DNA from: an uncultured Actinomycetes bacterium
GTDB lineage: Bacteria > Actinomycetota > Thermoleophilia > RBG-16-64-13
Assembly: GCA_963841735.1 (NCBI GenBank)
Contig: CAWJDT010000006.1
Location: forward strand, 1 to 64,000
DNA: 64,000 bases
Reading direction: 5' to 3'
The notes below the pieces were generated by a model, which saw only the letters and a program-made list of their open reading frames with translations, was not told the origin of the DNA and did not search any database. How positions within the stretch are numbered: the first letter of the stretch is position 1; each line of letters starts with the position of its first letter. Shown in pieces: positions 26,980 through 35,196 of the stretch. Position numbers and translations under genes: made by a program.

Positions 26980-27044
26980 GTCGAACGACTCAGCCTGTCA
27001 GCAGAAGCTCTGCCGTCATGCTGCACTTCTAAGTTGAAGTCACA
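26980..27044 (-). mobile_element. Degenerate or chimeric attC of cassette 4, fused to an IS30-like end
   Basis: GTCGAACGACTCAGCCTGTCAGCAG matches the attC half at 28406; TGCTGCACTTCTAAGTTGAAGTCACA (27019-27044) resembles the IS30 end at 25172. Confidence 0.55.
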
Positions 27045-27049
27045 CTTGG

Positions 27050-27283
27050 CTATCTGTCCCCTTCATCGGGCTCGACGTCGGGCACCTTGCCCATCGCACG
27101 CTCGAACCGCCCACGGTCCCCACGCGCGGCACGCTCCACAAGATAGTCGACGGTCATAAGGGCCGACATCTTCTCGGCGAGCGCCGTGGTGATGAGCTGG
27201 TTGATGGAGACGTCCTCTGACTTGGCGAGTTCGCGCGCCTTCTTGTGGAGCGACTCTGGCAAACGTAGGCTGATGGTACTCAT
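27050..27283 (-). CDS. Ribbon-helix-helix antitoxin (cassette 4)
   Basis: MSTISLRLPESLH..VSINQLI; lies downstream of and overlaps the PIN gene. Confidence 0.8.
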   Translation of the reverse strand: MSTISLRLPESLHKKARELAKSEDVSINQLITTALAEKMSALMTVDYLVERAARGDRGRFERAMGKVPDVEPDEGDR

Positions 27284-27705
27284 GACTTGCCTCCGATCCT
27301 CCTCAAGTACTCGCCCGGCCTGACTGCTTCGATCCCGAAGCGCTCAGCTCCCGTGAAGTCCTTGATGTTGTGAGTGACGATAATCCCGCATCCCGCCTCG
27401 ACAGCCAGTTCGAGCACGTGGTCGTCCCGAGGATCTCGCAAGACCGGCCGCCACAGGAAGTGGATCTCTTGTAGATGGGCTACGCTGCACAAGTAGTCGA
27501 TGACATCGTCGACCTCCTCGGGCTTCAACCCCGTCGCCTCGGGCATGCGCTTCGCGGCATCTTCGTACTCGACCACCAACGGGACCGAGAGGGCGATCTC
27601 AAACCGCGTCCCACCGATCAGCATCAGCAGCCGATGTGATGCGCCGCGGCGCGAACGCAGAGCCGAGATGAACACGCTAGTATCGATGACGACGCATGGA
27701 CCCAT
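27280..27705 (-). CDS. PIN-domain toxin (cassette 4)
   Basis: VIDTSV, EYE, DPRDDHVLE, THNIKDF acidic PIN residues. Confidence 0.88.
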   Translation of the reverse strand: MGPCVVIDTSVFISALRSRRGASHRLLMLIGGTRFEIALSVPLVVEYEDAAKRMPEATGLKPEEVDDVIDYLCSVAHLQEIHFLWRPVLRDPRDDHVLELAVEAGCGIIVTHNIKDFTGAERFGIEAVRPGEYLRRIGGKS

Positions 27706-27708
27706 AGC

Positions 27709-27740
27709 GGTATCGTATACGATACCAGACCGTGAGTCAA
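27709..27740 (-). promoter_or_regulatory. Cassette 4 promoter with palindromic operator, probably leaderless
   Basis: TTGACT-17-TACGAT 6 nt before ATG; GGTATCGTATACGATACC perfect palindrome 27709-27726. Confidence 0.7.
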
Positions 27741-27759
27741 CCGCGGCTAGTCCCCGTAT

Positions 27760-27849
27760 GCCTAACGTTCTAGCGCGTCAGCAGCGCCCGCCGGCCATGG
27801 TACTCCATGCGATATAAGCCAACGCCGGAGTCGGACCGGCGTGTTAGCC
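27760..27849 (-). mobile_element. attC site of cassette 3
   Basis: Minus strand GGCTAAC (contains toxin stop) ... GCTGACG-N9-GTTAGGC. Confidence 0.78.
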
Positions 27850-28143
27850 ACGCAGACGCCGTATTCGACATTCCGGACCACGTGCCACGTGCAGACACGC
27901 GACGACCAGGACGCCTGCGTCATCCGCCCGATAGTACAGAACATAGGGAAAGCGCGCCATGAGCTGGCGTCTAAGACCCGGGAGCACAAGAGATCCAGCG
28001 CTCGGGAACGACCGGATGCGACTCACGGTAGTCTCGACTAAATCAACGAACTGCTCACCGAGGCCCGCGCATTCGCCCTCGTACCAGTCACGGGCGAAGG
28101 TGACATCGACGATTGCGGCGGCGTCGAACCTGACGTCGGCCAC
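27844..28143 (-). CDS. ParE/RelE-family toxin (cassette 3)
   Basis: WYE..GLGEQF, RFPYVLYY, VVACLH..R.P. Confidence 0.82.
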   Translation of the reverse strand: MADVRFDAAAIVDVTFARDWYEGECAGLGEQFVDLVETTVSRIRSFPSAGSLVLPGLRRQLMARFPYVLYYRADDAGVLVVACLHVARGPECRIRRLRG

Positions 28144-28355
28144 TACTTCCGCATTCTGCGAAGGGCCTCATCCCACTCGACCAATTCGGCTTCGCCCCTG
28201 TCTATGGCGTCGAGCCGGGCGTCGAGTTCCTTGTGGTGAGCATCTGGAAAAGGAATCGACTCAGGCGTGTGCTGCAAACTGTCCCAAAGCTCACCGATGA
28301 GCTCAAGCCGGTCTTCAGGCGCCATGCTGTCTATGTCGATCGCAGGATGTCCCAT
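28143..28355 (-). CDS. Addiction-module antitoxin, TIGR02574-like (cassette 3)
   Basis: EDRLELIGELWDSL..ELDARL..WDE; promoter TTCACG-17-TATCAT 6 nt before ATG. Confidence 0.85.
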   Translation of the reverse strand: MGHPAIDIDSMAPEDRLELIGELWDSLQHTPESIPFPDAHHKELDARLDAIDRGEAELVEWDEALRRMRK

Positions 28356-28405
28356 GAGGCGATGATACCCCTCCGCGCAACTTTCGTGAACCGTATCGCT
28401 GATGA

Positions 28406-28466
28406 AGCTAACGATTCAGCCGGTCAGCAGCGACCGCAGGTCGTCTGCTGCACCGGCGTGTTAGCC
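28406..28466 (-). mobile_element. attC site of cassette 2
   Basis: Minus strand GGCTAAC-ACGCC-GGTGCAGC ... GCTGACC-N9-GTTAGCT, with the extrahelical G in L''. Confidence 0.85.
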
Positions 28467-28471
28467 AGCAT

Positions 28472-28807
28472 TCAGTAAACACAGGCGTCCAGAATCGACA
28501 GCACTTCTTCGAGCACCGGCTCAGGAGCTGGACCGATGCGCTTGACACCTCGAGCTTGGAAGTCGAGTGACTTCACTTGTTCTACCATCACAACGCCGGT
28601 CACCCCCGAGCCCTCGGGAATCTCCACGTGGAAAGGGTAGTCGCGGCGGGTGTTCGTCACTGGACAGACGATGCAAAGACCCGTCGACTTGTTGAACAGA
28701 TCGTTACTGATGACTAGCGCCGGACGCCACCCCTTCTGCTCGTGCCCCGACTGCGGGTCGAAGTCCACGGCGATGAATTCTCCCCTACGGGGAACGTAGG
28801 CCGCCAA
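28472..28807 (-). CDS. mazF: MazF/PemK endoribonuclease toxin (cassette 2)
   Basis: YVPRRG, FDPQSGHEQKGWRPALVIS, EQVKSLD. Confidence 0.9.
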   Translation of the reverse strand: MAAYVPRRGEFIAVDFDPQSGHEQKGWRPALVISNDLFNKSTGLCIVCPVTNTRRDYPFHVEIPEGSGVTGVVMVEQVKSLDFQARGVKRIGPAPEPVLEEVLSILDACVY

Positions 28808-29056
28808 CTACCAAACCTCGCGACCTGCCGGCGGACCCCAATCGAGCTCACCCGGCCTGTAGTCCTTAGGCACACGTGCCACGAGATCCTCCAGGCTGCG
28901 ACCACCGCGTACACGATGGGCAGGCGTGATGATGAGCGAACCGTCCTGGACACTAACCTGGACCGAGTCGCCGACCTCCACGTGGACATCCGCAAGGAGT
29001 TCCTTGCTCAGCCGCAGCCCTTGGCTGTTGCCCCACTTCTGAACCTTCGTGATCAT
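28808..29056 (-). CDS. mazE: MazE/AbrB antitoxin (cassette 2)
   Basis: VQKWGNSQGLRL, LEDLV, DWGPPAGREVW; promoter TTGACC-17-TATACT at 29111-29083. Confidence 0.9.
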   Translation of the reverse strand: MITKVQKWGNSQGLRLSKELLADVHVEVGDSVQVSVQDGSLIITPAHRVRGGRSLEDLVARVPKDYRPGELDWGPPAGREVW

Positions 29057-29124
29057 ACGCTACCCCTCGTTTGGATAGCCCAAGTATAGCCCTCGCGCGA
29101 GCACCGGTCAACGCGACGCTGTGG

Positions 29125-29184
29125 CGCTAACGTTGAGTCGGTCAGCTGCCAGCTCTGCTGGTCTGCTGCACCGACTTGTTAGGC
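29125..29184 (-). mobile_element. attC site of cassette 1
   Basis: Minus strand GCCTAAC (contains higA stop)-AAGTC-GGTGCAGC ... GCTGACC-N8-GTTAGCG. Confidence 0.85.
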
Positions 29185-29496
29185 AACACGGAGTTGCTTG
29201 ATACGCCGAATGTCGTCCTTGAGAACAACCTGAGCGTCCCACAGATCGACCGCGCGCTGCAGATTCAGCCAGAACTCCGGCGAGTTGCCGAAGAGGCCCG
29301 ACAGACGAAGCGCCATCTCGGGAGACAAAGCGCGCCGCTCGCGCAGAAGCTCGTTCACGGTCTGGCGCGAGACGCCCAGCGACTCAGCAAGACCACTGAC
29401 CGTAAGCCCATAGTCGGGCAGGAAGTCCTCACGCAGGATCTCGCCCGGATGGGTGGGCCGACGCTTCAGCGGTATGTCATTCGGGATACTCATCAC
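29179..29496 (-). CDS. higA: HigA antitoxin (cassette 1)
   Basis: PTHPGEILREDFL, SPEMALRL, FWLNLQ. Confidence 0.92.
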   Translation of the reverse strand: MMSIPNDIPLKRRPTHPGEILREDFLPDYGLTVSGLAESLGVSRQTVNELLRERRALSPEMALRLSGLFGNSPEFWLNLQRAVDLWDAQVVLKDDIRRIKQLRVA

Positions 29497-29505
29497 TTCT
29501 CACCT

Positions 29506-29787
29506 CTAGTGGTAGTCACAGAACTCGACCTCATAGGCATCGCCGTCTTCGAACCGGAAGCAGATGCGCCACTGGTCATTTACCGAGATAGAGTGCTGTC
29601 CGCGACGGTCGCCTTCGAGCGGATGCAGCCGATTACCGGGCGGGACCTTCAGGTCATCGAGCTGAGCGGCGGCGTTGACCTGCTCCAGCTTGCGCACGGC
29701 TCGTGAGGCCACGTCGGGCGGCACACGTCGCGCTTTGCCGGTCAGGTACAACTCCTGCGTCTGCGCATCGGCGAACGTCTTGATCAT
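29506..29787 (-). CDS. higB: HigB toxin (cassette 1)
   Basis: MIKTF, PPGNRLHPLEGDRRGQHSISVNDQWRICFRF..DYH; promoter TTGACG-17-TACGCT at 29823-29795. Confidence 0.92.
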   Translation of the reverse strand: MIKTFADAQTQELYLTGKARRVPPDVASRAVRKLEQVNAAAQLDDLKVPPGNRLHPLEGDRRGQHSISVNDQWRICFRFEDGDAYEVEFCDYH

Positions 29788-29847
29788 GGCGGATAGCGTA
29801 ACGCGTCACGTGACACACGTCAAGCCCAGAACGAACTCCGGTTGTTT

Positions 29848-29913
29848 GCCTAACAATACTTATCTGGTCTGTGTAACTCCACCGACACGACATCGGAGTG
29901 TCGGCATAACTCC
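29848..29913 (-). mobile_element. Candidate attI site
   Basis: Minus-strand GTTAGGC core at 29854-29848 with no upstream attC stem; preceded by repeated GGAGTTA (GTTACAC, GTTATGC) boxes. Confidence 0.6.
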
Positions 29914-30018
29914 GCGTCCGTCGCGGCCGGGGAGGTCGGGGAAAGGCTCGTAGAGCGGAAAGCGCGCGTCCCCCCCGGCGACTGTGGCGGTGTTATACAG
30001 ACTTCCATGAGAAGCCGG

Positions 30019-30371
30019 CCGGTGTCAAGAGCGATTCTTGGGTTGCTTCTTCCTCCTCTGCTCGGTTTCTATCATCCCTCTTCCGCCGCGAAGAGCCAAG
30101 ACCACGGCCACGCTTCCATTCGCACTTTTTGTCGGGAACCTATGGCGGGACCCGGTGCACGTTGGGGTCCGGCCGGGGGGAAGCGCTGCTATCTGTATAG
30201 CGGCCTTGGGGACGGCACCGGGTTGGTGTCGTTCTGTACGGCCGAGTCTGTGTGCGCAGTCGCTTTCACCCTGGGCGGTTGGTCTTTTTGCTGGTCTCCT
30301 GCGATGGGTTCACCCGCCGGTCTTCCTTGGTTATCGATCCTTCCCGTCGGCATCTCTCATCTTCACCGCTC
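30019..30371 (-). ncRNA. Putative bridge/seek RNA region of the IS1111-type element
   Basis: Non-coding region 3' of the transposase carrying TATACAGA (target match) and ATGGAAG (donor match) among hairpins. Confidence 0.55.
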
Positions 30372-31454
30372 CTAGGTGGTGGGCGCAGTCTCGCCGCGGA
30401 GCCGGACGTTGCGCAGTGGCTCGTAGACCTCACCGGTCCTCCAGAGGTGCAGGAGGAGCACCGAGAGCTTGCGGGCCACCGCCACTACCGCTCGCTTCTT
30501 GCCCCGCTTGCCGCCCTGCGCGGCCAAGGCAAGACCCCAACGCCTGAGATCCGAGTCCGGGCCGAAGGGCCCGAGGATGTAGTGGGCGGCGCTCACGAGG
30601 AGCCAGCGCAGGTGCTCGTCCCCGGCTTTGGTGATGCGCAGCTGAGGCTCCAGGGAACCGGAGCTTGCCTGCCGGGGCCTGAGGCCGAGATACGAGCCCA
30701 CCGAGCGGCACTTGGGGAAGCGCTCGGGATCTTCCACGGTAAGGACATAGACTGTGGCCGTAAGCGTGCCCACGCCGGGCACCTGGGAGAGAAGCGCGGT
30801 CTCTGGGTAGCGCTCCTTGGCCATGTCTTCGATCTTCTGATCGAGAGCGCGGATCTCATCGGAGATGTTCTGGATGACGGTGAGGACCGGAGCCAGGGCG
30901 GGAGCAAGCTCCTCGGGGACACACGGCCCGGCCTTTTGGGCAAAGACGTCGCTCGCGCAGGTGGGCAGGCGGCTGCCCAAGGACTTCGTGCAGCCGCGGG
31001 CATGACTGATCAGACGGGTGCGAGCCCTGACCAGGGCATTGCGACTGCGCACAAGCGCGAGGTCGGACTGGGTCTCGGCTCTCCGATGGGTGAGGGGGGC
31101 CAGCAGCTCCGGGTCCAGACGACCGACCCGGGCCAGGTACTCGGCGTCCACCCGGTCTGACTTCGAGTCGTTCTGGTAGATGAAGCGGAGCTTGCGGGGA
31201 TTGGCCACGACAACGTCGTGTCCAAGTTCGGAAAGCAGACGGCTAACCCAGGGGGAGTGGGTGCCGGCCTCGATCACGATGCGTAGCGGATCCGCCCCGG
31301 AGAAGCGGCGACGCAAGGCTTCCGGCTTGGTCGTCACCCGGCCCTCCTCGGTCACCTCGCCCGCTTCGTCGAGCACACAGATCTGACAACAACGGTCGCT
31401 CAGATCGAGACCCACGGTCACCTTCGCTTGCTCGGTGGTGCTAGCATCGCACAT
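30372..31454 (-). CDS. IS110-family DEDD transposase/recombinase
   Basis: VGLDLS, IEAG, KSDRVDA, VPGVG, YLGLRP..SSG, RITKAG, AVARKL. Confidence 0.95.
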   Translation of the reverse strand: MCDASTTEQAKVTVGLDLSDRCCQICVLDEAGEVTEEGRVTTKPEALRRRFSGADPLRIVIEAGTHSPWVSRLLSELGHDVVVANPRKLRFIYQNDSKSDRVDAEYLARVGRLDPELLAPLTHRRAETQSDLALVRSRNALVRARTRLISHARGCTKSLGSRLPTCASDVFAQKAGPCVPEELAPALAPVLTVIQNISDEIRALDQKIEDMAKERYPETALLSQVPGVGTLTATVYVLTVEDPERFPKCRSVGSYLGLRPRQASSGSLEPQLRITKAGDEHLRWLLVSAAHYILGPFGPDSDLRRWGLALAAQGGKRGKKRAVVAVARKLSVLLLHLWRTGEVYEPLRNVRLRGETAPTT

Positions 31455-31555
31455 GGCTGGCCTCCTTCATTTGGGCCCACGAGCCCGACTCTGATTGGGG
31501 ACCTCACGGTACTCCGGGGGAGGTCGGCCTTCTCATCCCATCTGTATATGCAGCA

Positions 31556-32518
31556 CTACAAAGCGTCAAGCGGGCTGCGCACGCCTCGGCCGCCCCGGTT
31601 GAGCACATGGGTGTAGATCATGGTGGTGCGCACATCTTTGTGGCCCAGAAGTTCTTGGATGGTGCGGATGTCGTACCCGGCCTCAAGGAGATGGGTCGCG
31701 AACGAATGCCGGAACGTGTGGCAGCCGACGTGCTTGACCACGCCGGCCCGGCTCACCGCCTCCTTCACCGCCCTTTGCACGAGACTCTCATGGACATGGT
31801 GGCGTCCCTCTTCCCCGGTCTTCGAGTTCTTCCAGCGCGTAGCCTGAGGTAACACCCACTGCCACCGCCAGTCGGTGGGAGCGGAGGGGTACTTGCGGTC
31901 CAAGGCCTCAGGCAGCATCACCCGGCCCCAGCCATCGACCAGGTCGTGGTCACGGATTATCTTCGCCCGCTGGAGATGTCCCTCCAGAGGAGAAACGATG
32001 GTGGCCGGCAGCATGGTCACTCGGTCTCTGCCGCCCTTGCCGTCGTGCACTGTGATCTCTCTGCGGGAGAAGTCCAGGTCCTTGACGCGGAGACAAAGGC
32101 ACTCCATGAGACGCAGACCGGAGCCGTAGAGGATGGAGGCGATCAGCCACTTGTCGCCCGCGAGCTCGGCAAGGACGGCCTGGGCCTCCGCGCGGGTCAT
32201 CACCACCGGTACGATGACGGTACGCCGGGCCCTGACGATCCCTTCGAGATCTCCCGCACTCTTCTGAAGGACGTGTCGATACAGAAAGAGGAGCGCCGCC
32301 AAGGCCTGATTCTGCGTGGAGGCGCTCACGTTCTCACGTACCGCGAGGTGGGTGAGGAAGGCGTTGATCTCGTCTTCGCCCATCTCGGCCGGATGCCGTA
32401 TGTGATGGAAGTAGATGAAGCGCCTTACCCAGAGCAGGTACGCGCGCTCAGTGCACGGACTGTAGTGAGGGCTGCGGAGCGCGTCGTGCATCTGTTCGAG
32501 GAGTCGAGGCTTGTCCAT
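31556..32518 (-). CDS. intI: Integron integrase IntI
   Basis: HPAEMG..FLTHLA..VSASTQNQALAALLFLY; catalytic R-K-HxxR-H-Y intact; IntI-specific patch ALDRKYP..WRWQW..RHH. Confidence 0.95.
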   Translation of the reverse strand: MDKPRLLEQMHDALRSPHYSPCTERAYLLWVRRFIYFHHIRHPAEMGEDEINAFLTHLAVRENVSASTQNQALAALLFLYRHVLQKSAGDLEGIVRARRTVIVPVVMTRAEAQAVLAELAGDKWLIASILYGSGLRLMECLCLRVKDLDFSRREITVHDGKGGRDRVTMLPATIVSPLEGHLQRAKIIRDHDLVDGWGRVMLPEALDRKYPSAPTDWRWQWVLPQATRWKNSKTGEEGRHHVHESLVQRAVKEAVSRAGVVKHVGCHTFRHSFATHLLEAGYDIRTIQELLGHKDVRTTMIYTHVLNRGGRGVRSPLDAL

Positions 32519-32592
32519 CGGCCCCAGGATGACACCAGGCGCGTGGAGACAGACTAGGACTCTAGACCGATACTGGTCGCCGCATCATCTCG

Positions 32593-32707
32593 GAAGCGAC
32601 CCGAGCCACCTCAACTGAGTGAGGCTCGGAAGCGAAGCGACCCGAGCCACCTCGTGTGAGTGAGGCTCGGAAGCGAAGCGACCCGAGCCACCTCAACTGA
32701 GTGAGGC
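32593..32707. repeat. Tandem 41-bp palindromic (REP-like) repeat, ~2.8 copies
   Basis: GAAGCGACCCGAGCCACCTC-NNNN-GAGTGAGGCTCGGAAGC starting at 32593, 32634 and 32675. Confidence 0.85.
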
Positions 32708-32762
32708 CCCCAGGCCACCACATGACGATGAGGCCGGCAGGCCAAGCCCGAGCGGGGAGGTC

Positions 32763-32849
32763 CCCCAAGGGGTCGCATAGGTGTCCTGGAACGGTTCGCG
32801 GGACCTTCCGCGTTCAAAGTTGGAAGGGCACCTATGCGGCCCCTTGGGG
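32763..32849. terminator. Long hairpin directly after purH stop
   Basis: CCCCAAGGGGTCGCATAGGTGTCCT ... AGGGCACCTATGCGGCCCCTTGGGG. Confidence 0.55.
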
Positions 32850-32858
32850 CCACTGCGG

Positions 32859-34397
32859 TTAGTGCTTGAAGTGTCGGCGGCCCGTCACAACCATGGCAAG
32901 ACCCCGCTCCTCGGCCAGCGCCAGCGACTCGTCATCCCTCTTGGAACCCCCGGGATGGATCACGCAGGTCGCCCCCGCGTCGGCGCAAACCTGCAGCGCG
33001 TCTGGGAAGGGGAAGAAGGCATCTGAGGCCACGGCGGTTCCCATCAGCGGGAACCTCGACCGACTGACCGCCAGATTGGCCGAGTCCACCCGGCTCATCT
33101 GCCCGGCGCCCACGCCCACGGTCATCAGCTCTTTGGTCAAGATGATGGCGTTCGACTTGGTGTGTTTTGCCACCCGCCAGCCGAACAGCAGATCGCCCCA
33201 CTCGGCTTCGGTAGGATGACGCGTGCTCACCACCTGCATGTTCTCGCGCTGGTCGACCTCGCAGTCCCAATCCTGCACCAACATGCCGCCCATGACCCGC
33301 TTCATGTCAAAGGTTCCGCAGGTGTCGCGGTTGAGCTGGCCGGTGAGAAGGCGGATGTCCTTCTTCCGAGTCAGGATCTCAAGAGCGTCGTCCGCGTATG
33401 CGGGAGCCCACAGCACTTCCACGAAGATGGCCGACAGCCCCAGGGCAAGTGCTTCGTCCACTGTCCGGTTGACCACGATCACTCCGCCGAACGCCGAGAC
33501 CGGGTCGCACGAGAAAGCCTTGTCGTATGCAGCGGCCACCGTCTCGGCCACCGCCACCCCGCAGGGATTGTTGTGCTTGACGATGACACAGGCCGGCAGG
33601 GCGAACTCGTCCAGTACCCGCCGGGCCGAATCCAAATCGAGCAGGTTGTTGAACGAGAGCTTCTGCCCGTGGAGCTGCTCCAGCGACGCCGGCAGGGAGC
33701 CACCCGCGCCCACCTCGGAGTACCACGAGGCACGCTGGTGCGGGTTCTCGCCGTAACGCAGATCGTCGAGCTTGACCAGATCGATCATAAAATGCTCTGG
33801 AAAATCCGCTTCCTGTTCCCCAAACCAGTTGGCGATGGCCGAGTCGTAGTGAGCGGTGTGATGGAAGGCCTTGGCGGCCAGATGGCGGCGCGTCTCGCGC
33901 AACAGCTCGCCCTTGTTCTCCTTGAGCTCCGCCAACACGGTGTCGTAGTCGCCCGGGTCGGTGACAATGCCCACCGCCGAGAAGTTCTTTGCGGCCGAGC
34001 GCACCATGCTGGGACCGCCGATATCGATGTTTTCCACGGCGTCGGCCTCGGTCACGCCGCGTTCAGCCACCGTCGCCTCAAAGGGATAAAGATTCACCAC
34101 CACCAGATCGATGGGCGCGATGCCCAGATCGGCGATGGCCTTCATGTGAGAGGCACGCTGCCTGTCGGCCAGAATGCCCCCGTGGATAGCGGGGTGCAGC
34201 GTCTTGACCCGTCCGTCCATGATCTCGGGAAACCCGGTCACCTCGGAGATGCCGGTAACCGGCAGTCCCTCTTCCTTCAGGTAGCGGGCCGTCCCTCCGG
34301 TGGAGATGACCTCCACGCCCAACTCCACTAAGCCCCGCACAAACGGGGCGAGATCCTTCTTGTCCGACACCGACACCAGTGCCCGTTTGACCTTCAC
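32859..34397 (-). CDS. purH: Bifunctional AICAR transformylase/IMP cyclohydrolase
   Basis: RALVSVSDK, GRVKTLHP, IDIGGP, LRYGENPHQ, ASDAFFPF, RHFKH. Confidence 0.97.
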   Translation of the reverse strand: MKVKRALVSVSDKKDLAPFVRGLVELGVEVISTGGTARYLKEEGLPVTGISEVTGFPEIMDGRVKTLHPAIHGGILADRQRASHMKAIADLGIAPIDLVVVNLYPFEATVAERGVTEADAVENIDIGGPSMVRSAAKNFSAVGIVTDPGDYDTVLAELKENKGELLRETRRHLAAKAFHHTAHYDSAIANWFGEQEADFPEHFMIDLVKLDDLRYGENPHQRASWYSEVGAGGSLPASLEQLHGQKLSFNNLLDLDSARRVLDEFALPACVIVKHNNPCGVAVAETVAAAYDKAFSCDPVSAFGGVIVVNRTVDEALALGLSAIFVEVLWAPAYADDALEILTRKKDIRLLTGQLNRDTCGTFDMKRVMGGMLVQDWDCEVDQRENMQVVSTRHPTEAEWGDLLFGWRVAKHTKSNAIILTKELMTVGVGAGQMSRVDSANLAVSRSRFPLMGTAVASDAFFPFPDALQVCADAGATCVIHPGGSKRDDESLALAEERGLAMVVTGRRHFKH

Positions 34398-34407
34398 TAT
34401 ATCCTCC

Positions 34408-35196
34408 TCAGTCCTTTTTATTATCCCAGTCTACCTGCACCTGCCGGGTTCCCGAATGAGGGGTTTGCACCCTCCCCTCCGCGATCATGCGGATGGTGGC
34501 CGGCAACAACTCATGCTCCACGGCATGTATTCGAGCCGCTAGGCTCTCGACCGTGTCGCCCTCTTTCACCCGTACCGCCTCCTGGGCGATGACCTCCCCG
34601 GTATCCAAGCCCTCGTCGACGAAATGCACCGTCACTCCGGTGACCTTCACCCCGTAGCGCACCGCGTCGCCGATGGACGTGGTGCCCGGGAACGCAGGCA
34701 GCAACGCCGGGTGAAGGTTGATCACCCGCCAAGGGAAGGCCCGCACGAACTCAGAAGCCACAAGACGCATGTAACCGGCCAGCACCACCAGATCGGGCCG
34801 GGCTTCAGCGACGGCGGCGATAAGGGCCCTGTCGTGCTCAGCCCGCGTGGCAAAGTCACCGGCCGGAAGTACGGCCGTGGCTATGCCTGCCGCCCGCGCC
34901 CGCCCCAGCGCTCCGGCGCCGGGCTGATCGCTCACCACAAGGGCCACCTCAATAAGAGGGCTCCCGACTGAGGGCGCCGTGGCCGCGGTCACTGCCGGCG
35001 CGCCGCCAGGCTCGGCTCGGCCCGCGCCAGGCTCCGCGATAGGCTGTGGGTGCAGGCTATCGATGATCGCCTGCAGGTTGGTGCCGCTCCCTGAAGCCAG
35101 CACCACCAGCCGAAAAGCCGGGGAGCCGCTCCCGGCTTCCGCGCCCACCGCGGCGCCGCAGGCGCCGCCGGGCCCCGAGGGCCCCTCGTGACTCAC
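34408..35196 (-). CDS. purN: Phosphoribosylglycinamide formyltransferase
   Basis: ASGSGTNLQA, LAGYMR, NLHPALLP, GVTVHFVD. Confidence 0.95.
   Translation of the reverse strand: MSHEGPSGPGGACGAAVGAEAGSGSPAFRLVVLASGSGTNLQAIIDSLHPQPIAEPGAGRAEPGGAPAVTAATAPSVGSPLIEVALVVSDQPGAGALGRARAAGIATAVLPAGDFATRAEHDRALIAAVAEARPDLVVLAGYMRLVASEFVRAFPWRVINLHPALLPAFPGTTSIGDAVRYGVKVTGVTVHFVDEGLDTGEVIAQEAVRVKEGDTVESLAARIHAVEHELLPATIRMIAEGRVQTPHSGTRQVQVDWDNKKD

Follow-up and report, generated by a model that had tools for sequence, protein, structure and literature searches.

Structure and location of the element

The 64,000 nt stretch analysed here (the window; contig CAWJDT010000006.1 of an uncultured Actinomycetes bacterium placed in the class Thermoleophilia) carries an integron, and an insertion sequence of the IS1111 type is located between its integrase gene intI and its attI-like region (Table 1). 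The element, its copies and its relatives are best explained by a new member of the IS1111 family, active or recently active, that would home by means of a guide RNA to a motif of the integron platform, i.e. the intI 3′ end, the motif and the attI-like region. A probability of roughly 0.85 is assigned to this explanation as a whole. The mechanism is already established for other elements; the target class, an intI–attI platform and not attC, appears to be new.

The transposase, whose relatives align from about residue 10, matches PF01548 (DEDD_Tnp_IS110, 2e-17), PF02371 (Transposase_20, 1.5e-18) and NF033542 ('IS110 family RNA-guided transposase', 217.7 bits, the cut-off being 140). Among proteins of solved structure, the bridge recombinases of ISCro4 (PDB 9t56, E 1.4e-11) and IS621 (8wt6, E 2.7e-10) are homologous to it. 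Residues D17, E62, D100, D103, S265 and G266 are invariant among seven relatives and supply the DEDD and Ser-Gly residues of the IS110 family. The C-terminal sequence GLRPRQADSG of the seven-relative consensus, with G257, L258, P260, S265 and G266 invariant, conforms to the IS1111 motif GL-P----S(T)G (PMC11187229). Plasmid-borne relatives reach at best 33–37 % aa identity, and the element is therefore probably not a close relative of the clinical IS1111-attC elements.

IS1111 elements are described as having subterminal repeats of ~11–13 bp with a 7-bp left and a 3-bp right extension (PMC11187229). Both are present here: AGATGGG (31537–31543) lies 5′ of the left repeat, and GGA (minus strand, 30004–30006) lies 3′ of the right repeat. 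When AGATGGG plus ATGAGAAGGCCG is set against TCC plus ATGAGAAGCCGG (the right end, reverse-complemented), eight positions agree perfectly, and beyond them the match goes on after a shift of one base. The right end …CTTCTCATGGA is kept across 34 aligned relatives. Non-coding sequence extends 89 nt upstream and 368 nt (30004–30371) downstream of the transposase gene, the larger region being on the side usual for IS1111. The identification of an IS1111-type bridge recombinase in an initial annotation is thus borne out by the protein profiles, the subterminal repeats and the downstream non-coding region; this region and the five segments picked out within it are present, and its length, given there as 350 nt, is to be corrected to 368 nt.

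A TTGAC word ~17–20 nt from the right end (within 30004–30050 in the window) is kept in nearly all 34 aligned relatives. It would fit the −35 box of a promoter that is assembled only when the two ends meet in the circle, such as that described for ISEc11 (PMC11187229). A hybrid outward promoter reading from the right-end TTGACA into attI was considered and rejected, as the spacing to any −10-like hexamer is wrong and a consensus scan found none.

Direct reading of the plus strand gives TATACAGACT at 29994–30003 and GTATAT at 31544–31549. Excision of 30004–31543 yields TATACAGACTGTATA, that is TATACAG-A-CTGTATA, a 7-1-7 palindrome without mismatch. Both junctions have CT (minus-strand AG), so that placement of the AG core is ambiguous; with the limits used here 31542–31543 falls within the element and 30002–30003 outside it. 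The intI stop (minus-strand TAG) occupies 31556–31558, leaving the 12 bases 31544–31555 between stop and element. The restored palindrome, the 12 bp distance and the shared core had all been noted in the initial annotation and were found again on reading; the palindrome is perfect in the window copy only, the other four sites in the genome reading TATACAG-T-CTGCATA. The left-half block also lies 3′ of the intI stop in 10 of 12 integrons of relatives.

Table 1. Position and basis of the features discussed, in window coordinates
Feature	Position	Strand	Basis or remark
IS1111-type insertion sequence, 1540 bp	30004..31543	minus	Limits from five genome copies and uninterrupted sites (same genome, relatives)
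Transposase / bridge recombinase gene, 360 aa from first ATG	30372..31454	minus	Pfam, NCBIfam and PDB matches
Predicted bridge/seek RNA scaffold, stems P1, P2, P3 and two guide loops	30100..30275	minus	RNAalifold consensus; ~175 nt
Predicted right-flank guide CACACAGACU, containing ACACAGACT of the initial annotation	30245..30254	minus	Complementary to top strand, core + right flank; pairs with AGTCTGTGTG
Predicted left-flank guide CUAUACAGAU, containing TATACAGAT of the initial annotation	30191..30200	minus	Identical to top strand: left flank + core + first two bases of element
P2 hairpin between target guides, contains GTACAGA (30233–30239)	30201..30244	minus	Stem covaries
Predicted donor guide AUGGAAG	30113..30119	minus	Equals right end (CATGGA) + core; 3′ of P3 in conserved AGUGCG-N-AUGGAAGC
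Candidate second donor guide ACCCCAAC	30161..30168	minus	5′ of P3; complementary 6/8 to core G + left end ATGGGAT
GGAAGAGGGATGA, unsupported as guide	30072..30084	minus	Stretch without conservation in 34 aligned relatives; kept only in close copy L127
Left subterminal inverted repeat ATGAGAAGGCCG	31525..31536	minus	Copies compared; left end kept in related elements
Right subterminal inverted repeat, plus strand ATGAGAAGCCGG	30007..30018	minus	Copies compared
Left target half (…GCTGCATATAC, minus)	31544..31555	minus	Directly 3′ of intI stop
Core + right target half (AGTCTGTATAACAC, minus)	29989..30003	minus	Direct reading; comparison of copies and relatives
Integron integrase gene intI, 320 aa, intact	31556..32518	minus	TIGR02249 455.7 bits (cut-off 265), aligned 1–315 of 315
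attI-like region	29848..29988	minus	Homologous in five copies, the genome's own empty site and relatives; homology stops at GTT; conserved GTTATGC(C/A)GACAC and GTCGGTGGAGTT…CAGAC(C/T)(A/G)GATAAG-N-ATT
First four cassettes, all type II toxin-antitoxin pairs	26980..29847	minus	Pfam; attC-like sites read

Copies of the element and unoccupied sites

Searching the genome (2.82 Mb in 8 contigs, 89.7 % complete) revealed five copies of the element, 99.9–100 % identical and differing by one substitution and one single-base indel. All five are inserted at a single motif (…TATAC/AG/TCTG…, slashes marking the core) and in a single orientation relative to intI. In the orientation of the transposase the left flank of each reads …CCGCTTGAC-N(15–17)-GCATATAC and the right flank AGTCTG(T/C)ATA…. 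The left flank is always the 3′ end of intI, present as two intact genes, one fragment (residues 248–314) and two remnants of ~40 bp. The five right flanks are homologous over ~150 bp, as far as GTT(A/G)G, and divergent beyond, as expected for attI followed by differing first cassettes. Identity among the flanks is 55–88 % over 60 bp on the left and 45–96 % over 150 bp on the right. Nearly identical copies between diverged flanks show that the element entered five paralogous, already diverged sites separately.

The element fills all exact copies of the motif in the genome; no unoccupied exact TATACAGTCTG was found there. Fifteen words with one mismatch (nine with the reversed pattern as control) are all unoccupied, two platform remnants among them. 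One of these (L017) is an uninterrupted platform with a degraded intI end, the sequence GCACATACAG/TCTGCATA and a full attI-like region; the other (L018) reads ACAGATACAG/TCTGTATA. Both differ from the occupied sites at position −5, the variants at these two remnants being CATAC and GATAC. In addition, a contig from a rock metagenome (run X2), ~94 % identical to the window, lacks the element, 29975 being followed directly by 31544.

At least seven platform copies are present in the genome, two of them with intact intI genes that are 80 % identical to each other. Besides that of the window (contig C6, 31556–32518) they are located at C1:809619-810572, C5:151584-151748, C1:~1357600, C1:~402250, C1:392022-392039 (L017) and C1:441866-441883 (L018). 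Two of the element-bearing loci (L003 and L004) have the same attI and first cassette and different intI remnants. A second, distant transposase of the IS110 family (L016, C1:814438-815406, 34 % identical) lies 2.3 kb from the element copy at C1:810589-812128, within or beside that integron.

Predicted target guides and RNA scaffold

Related elements came from 61 related genomes, from genome contigs (542 relatives, of which 80 loci were kept) and from 401 genomes belonging to the class. Their common ends are AG-ATGGGATGAGAAGG… and …TTGAC-N-CTTCTCATGGA-AG. At the 3′ side they have a common scaffold, the first part of which is GACUGCG, a variable segment of ~10 nt, a hairpin, a variable segment of ~8 nt and AGAU-N-GCAGC, and the second part GGACCCCAAC-N-UGCAC, a hairpin and GUGCG-N-AUGGAAGC. 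Of the variable segments, the first corresponds to core plus right flank in reverse complement, and the second is identical to left flank plus core.

In the window these segments contain ACACAGACT and TATACAGAT, which the initial annotation had proposed as target guides. They lie on opposite strands of a loop closed by covarying stems, and the homologous strands of the relatives match their own flanks; the proposal therefore holds for both. The right-flank guide, located on the 5′ side of the P1–P2 loop, pairs with AGTCTGT at the window site and with AGTCTG at the other four. On the 3′ strand, the left-flank guide has UAUACAG, identical to left flank and core of each of the five copies, and its two bases past the core track the element's own first two (AGAU; AGUU in L051 and L059). 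GTACAGA, likewise proposed as a guide, is set aside: it falls inside the P2 hairpin, the interior of which varies in length and sequence among relatives, and has only a 6-mer in common with the target. The stem of P2 covaries, pair 74/127 being GC in 18 sequences, CG in 8 and AU in 4.

The correspondence between guides and flanks was examined at 93 loci, 67 of which have both ends and both guides and represent 34 distinct guide pairs. Beyond the core, runs of match between the left guide and its own flank average 3.39 nt, versus 0.39 nt in 2107 mismatched pairings, and those of the right guide 4.83 nt, versus 1.45 nt (n=2111). The observed means were reached in none of 2000 shuffles. Within the element itself, the 368-nt region and the target have three 7-mers in common, counting either strand, where 0.17 would be expected (three are reached in 7 of 1000 dinucleotide shuffles), and six 6-mers where 1.0 would be expected (3 of 1000 shuffles).

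For the scaffold, 34 of 39 sequences with distinct guides were aligned, five of more than 300 nt (L045, L049, L050, L073 and L097) being omitted. In the RNAalifold consensus P1 encloses both variable segments and P2 lies between them. The consensus stems are paired in 95.5 % of cells, versus 22–46 % when the partners are slid, and both sides have changed in a compensatory manner in 8 of 17 pairs. On four of five stem measures none of 500 shuffles matches the alignment; on the fifth 80 of 500 do. Folding of the single copy gives the same architecture, with GCACACAGACU and CUAUACAGAUA as the two 11-nt strands of one loop. The arrangement of IS1111 guides, a top-strand complement 5′ of a bottom-strand complement with overlap at the insertion point, is found here at the level of sequence.

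Predicted donor loop

A second loop, the strands of which flank P3, appears to correspond to the ends of the element. AUGGAAG, which the initial annotation had regarded as a donor segment, lies in this loop and covaries with the right end: AUAGAAG accompanies the right end CATAGA (L056 and the L064 group), and AUGGCAG the right end CATGGC (L052). The other donor segment named there, GGAAGAGGGATGA, lies outside the conserved scaffold and is replaced by ACCCCAAC as the better candidate. This strand reads GCTCAAC in L104 (left end ATGAGAT) versus GCCCAAC in L068 and L099 (left end ATGGGAT), and in L043 it matches 8/8. Its change with the left end is not consistent across the family.

The explanation given at the outset, modelled on the mechanism established for IS621, ISEc11 and ISKpn4, can thus be stated as follows. 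The 3′ non-coding region would encode a bridge/seek RNA, one internal loop of which would hold the two short target guides. A second loop (ACCCCAAC and AUGGAAG) would match the joined ends of the element. The DEDD/serine recombinase together with this RNA would recombine a circle (junction …CATGGA-AG-ATGGGATG…) with the site …TATAC-AG-TCTG…. The target is a conserved non-coding platform block after the intI stop and ~150 bp before the crossover, so the element homes to platforms, not to attC.

The integron and its conserved blocks

The insertion between intI and attI, as described in the initial annotation, is supported by the strong TIGR02249 match of the integrase, by the crossover ~150 bp from the insertion point and by cassettes on the same strand. 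The crossover, G/TTAGGC at 29854–29848, is where the first cassette begins. The first four cassettes contain higBA, mazEF, an Unstab_antitox/ParE pair and a PIN/HicB-like pair, all on the strand of intI. Each is followed by an inverted R″(…YTAAC)…R′(GTTRG…) pair, 55–90 bp apart and attC-like; these sites were identified by eye. The attC repeat word CGGTGCAGCAGAC has only two exact copies, and its count with three mismatches equals that expected by chance, so it is of no use for sizing the array. Behind the empty platform L017 the first cassette again corresponds to the start of the PIN cassette. purH lies past intI.

With an IntI-type recombinase, attI, and same-strand cassettes bounded by attC-like sites, the locus qualifies as a complete integron, chromosomal and with the 'inverted integrase' arrangement that PMC4889954 describes. 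According to that paper, none of the Actinobacteria genomes available at the time had a complete integron.

Matches to intI are found in 13 of 60 other genomes of the host family. Among 12 loci that include the intI 3′ end, the motif is uninterrupted and at most ~25 nt from the intI stop in 10 (e.g. GCATATACAGTCTGCATAA in L113); the two that differ from it are L115 and L116. Alignment of relatives with the flanks of the element's own copies reveals three conserved blocks separated by variable sequence. Block A is the target of the element. Block B, GTTAT(G/A)CAGACAC, lies ~95 bp past A, and block C, GTCGGTGGAGTT…CAGAC(T/C)GGATAAG-N-ATTGTTAGG, lies at the crossover. Block B (GTTATGCAGAC) recurs in inverted form as the right half of A (GTCTGCATAAC), and ATACAGTCTG is similar to the inverse of CAGACTGGAT in block C. 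Blocks A and B may be integrase-binding sites.

In 9 of 11 empty sites TTGAC(G/A)-N17/18-TAC(A/T)GT spans the insertion point, and in a consensus scan this TTGAC…TACAGT-type site is the sole promoter-like site in 500 bp of L113. The same scan found no promoter-like site in the interrupted window. The insertion splits the promoter-like TTGACG-N17/18-TACAGT and moves intI and the left half of the block 1.5 kb from attI. The promoter reading of block A is offered as a lead, as the block could equally be a protein-binding site.

Related elements at integrons and elsewhere

Scanning metagenome contigs for exact matches to the left junction gave three. Two of these (L126 and L128) are unrelated elements, ~52 % identical or less, sharing the word only. 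The third (L127) carries a transposase 89 % identical to that of the window and is located after a degenerate intI 3′ end, at …TTGAC-N-TTTATAC/AG…/AGTCTGCCCATGC. Its left guide is unchanged. Its right guide, CAGGCAGACT, is altered at two positions and pairs over 8 nt with its own site, AGTCTGCC. A decayed copy (L148) in another genome (G035) is followed by AGTCTGACCATGT… and an attI-like block C. The five genome copies, L127 and L148 all occupy the platform motif, between the intI stop and attI, in agreement with the view in the initial annotation that the element is programmed against the platform itself. Copies from three metagenome runs have T>C at 30251, a change that would suit TCTGC, the commoner variant of the site; the runs hold little of the window (best 0.20 of sampled words), all of it as contigs.

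The nearest elements are in metagenome-assembled genomes of Thermoleophilia and Gaiellales. Within the fetched loci L016–L111, tblastn with IntI gave an IntI-like match in L099 only (distant, 38 %) and blastn with the attI region a match in L017 only; the related elements are thus mostly located away from integrons. One (L020, G019:C6, 68 % aa) is apparently in a tRNA-like sequence (…GGACTCGAACC…GGATTGC/AG), and its left guide UUGCAG matches the flank. In L050 and L033 the guides and flanks contain CCTAAC, the inverse-core word of attC sites. The site of L050 is GCCTAAC-N9-GTTAGGC, a palindrome with 9-bp spacing and not a standard attC. Both may belong to the same clade and be directed at attC-like sites.

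Evaluation of the explanations

Several observations weigh against a guide-RNA element homing to platforms. The single-copy fold is no more stable than shuffled sequence (z = −0.71; 37 of 200 fold as well), so that the structure rests on covariation instead of on energy. In Rfam no bridge-RNA family was matched over 27000–35000 at E up to 1; the only match, a plant-virus pseudoknot inside intI, is dismissed as chance. Pairing with the target is short, 7 nt on the left and 6–7 contiguous nt on the right with mismatches beyond, and many cognate matches in the family are imperfect (a left run of at least 5 in 35 % and a right run of at least 6 in 38 % of guide pairs). The second donor strand fits at only 6 of 8 positions. 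One related copy in run X2 abuts a flank unfit for its guide. The next DNA relatives (L129–L131 and L134, 79–84 % nt) carry guides for CTAGC/AG/GC…, and L032/L132, with guides for a site similar to that of the element, is located at a place that fits on the right only, its left flank matching in GC plus core. All 10 platform motifs seen in relatives are empty, and specialisation on integrons rests on three organisms. The promoter reading draws on a consensus scan, and its TTGAC also forms codons of the conserved Pro-Leu-Asp at the IntI C-terminus. Finally, that the RNA is produced and used is something we infer, and this is counted as a limit of the explanation.

The alternatives differ in what they leave to the guides. 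It could be that the guides are real and the link to integrons incidental, a word of 11–13 bp occurring, in a GC-rich genome, only in a repeated platform, with neither specialisation nor consequence. Every IS110/IS1111 element has some specific target (PMC11187229, PMC11208160), and the different word targeted by the nearest DNA relatives and the empty platforms of the other genomes would also suit this account. We nevertheless consider it unlikely: the same lineage occupies the same platform position in two further organisms, the two altered bases of the L127 right guide are changed toward its own platform variant, the T>C at 30251 looks like guides tracking the platform, and integrons throughout the family have the motif as a conserved block. 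Choice of the site by a protein, whether a recombinase reading the near-palindrome or IntI having inserted the element at a secondary site, is the least probable of the alternatives. A near-palindromic site whose right half is an inverted copy of an attI block that resembles integrase core sites would invite it, yet the element has no attC-like end, its typical IS1111 ends are common to relatives at unrelated sequences, and the palindrome is imperfect at four of five sites. Protein recognition would also not predict loop strands that change with the flanks in 34 guide pairs.

A different objection concerns the independence of the insertions. The five copies could have arisen by duplication of a platform already bearing the element, gene conversion having kept the copies identical while the flanks diverged. 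Some platform duplication did happen, as the right flanks of L002, L003 and L004 are 90–96 % alike and L003 and L004 have a first cassette in common. As an account of all five copies it is very improbable, scarcely more credible than choice by a protein. The other flank pairs are 45–65 % identical against 99.9–100 % for the element, conversion would have to be limited exactly to the 1540 bp at all five places, and element-free platforms exist in the same genome (L017), in all 10 motif-bearing relatives and in the ~94 %-identical contig. Homing of a guide-RNA element to the platform motif thus remains the preferred explanation.

What the insertion does is a separate matter. We likewise infer, from the disruption of the platform, an effect on integron function. 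A tentative proposal, for which the odds are rather poor, is that the lineage is specialised on the integron platform, its guides co-evolving with a conserved block right after intI that would be the −10 of the cassette promoter and/or an accessory integrase-binding site. As IS110-type excision is seamless, the element would then act as a reversible, RNA-programmed switch uncoupling intI and the promoter from attI and the cassettes, and its identical copies at every platform would also drive the rearrangements by which the platforms of this genome became multiplied and fragmented.

The locus documents complete, multi-copy integrons in a phylum once reported to be without them (PMC4889954). It also offers a clean natural example of guide and target, in which five independent insertions fill the exact sites, near-misses are empty and guide variants fit variant sites. 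Homing of the element points to a block of non-coding sequence, conserved and not described before, in the same-strand integrons of Thermoleophilia-like Actinomycetota; the block is a candidate for a promoter of the cassettes or an accessory site of the integrase. A literature search on IS1111-attC elements, on IS110 and integrons and on Thermoleophilia integrons gave no report of an insertion sequence aimed at the intI–attI junction; the supplementary target tables of PMC11187229 and PMC11208160 could contain a related case. The comparisons that follow concern systems that are alike in part.

Comparison with known systems

Elements of the IS1111-attC group insert at one end of the attC of a cassette, whereas the present element inserts in the block between the intI stop and attI; the founding papers on the group are reportedly those of Tetu & Holmes 2008 and Post & Hall 2009. 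None of the five copies is in the attC-like sites that were read. The group (ISKpn4, ISPst6 and ISPa25) resembles the element in being of IS1111 type, in having a downstream non-coding seekRNA region and in occupying a defined position of an integron in one orientation (PMC11187229). The host integron differs in that its integrase is in the same direction as the cassettes and in being carried by a Thermoleophilia-like actinobacterium. The distance to ISKpn4, ISPst6 and ISPa21 is judged from the best plasmid-borne relatives (33–37 % aa).

ISEc11 and ISPa11 are similar in having subterminal repeats with 7- and 3-nt extensions, a 3′ non-coding RNA, and a top-strand-complementary segment 5′ of the bottom-strand match with overlap at the insertion point. 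Their targets are a linear site and REP sequences, unlike the platform motif (PMC11187229). The scaffold of the present element, ~175 nt as predicted from sequence, has a second loop, and in this respect is nearer to a long seekRNA or a bridge RNA.

Group IIC-attC introns also home to integron recombination sites by nucleic-acid pairing. However, they are retroelements (ribozymes) targeting attC, and their chemistry is unrelated to that of the present element (PMC3001079).

IS621, too, has a DEDD and serine recombinase, homologous to that of the present element (E 2.7e-10). Its bridge RNA has two internal loops with one strand each for the bottom and top strands, and a 2-nt core takes part in both pairings (PMC11208160, PMC11208158), as predicted here. 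In IS621 the RNA is located upstream of the gene, the left guide is on the 5′ side of the loop and the core is CT (PMC11208160), whereas in the present element the predicted RNA is downstream, the guide order is reversed and the core is AG. An order with the top-strand complement first is that reported for IS1111 seekRNAs (PMC11187229).

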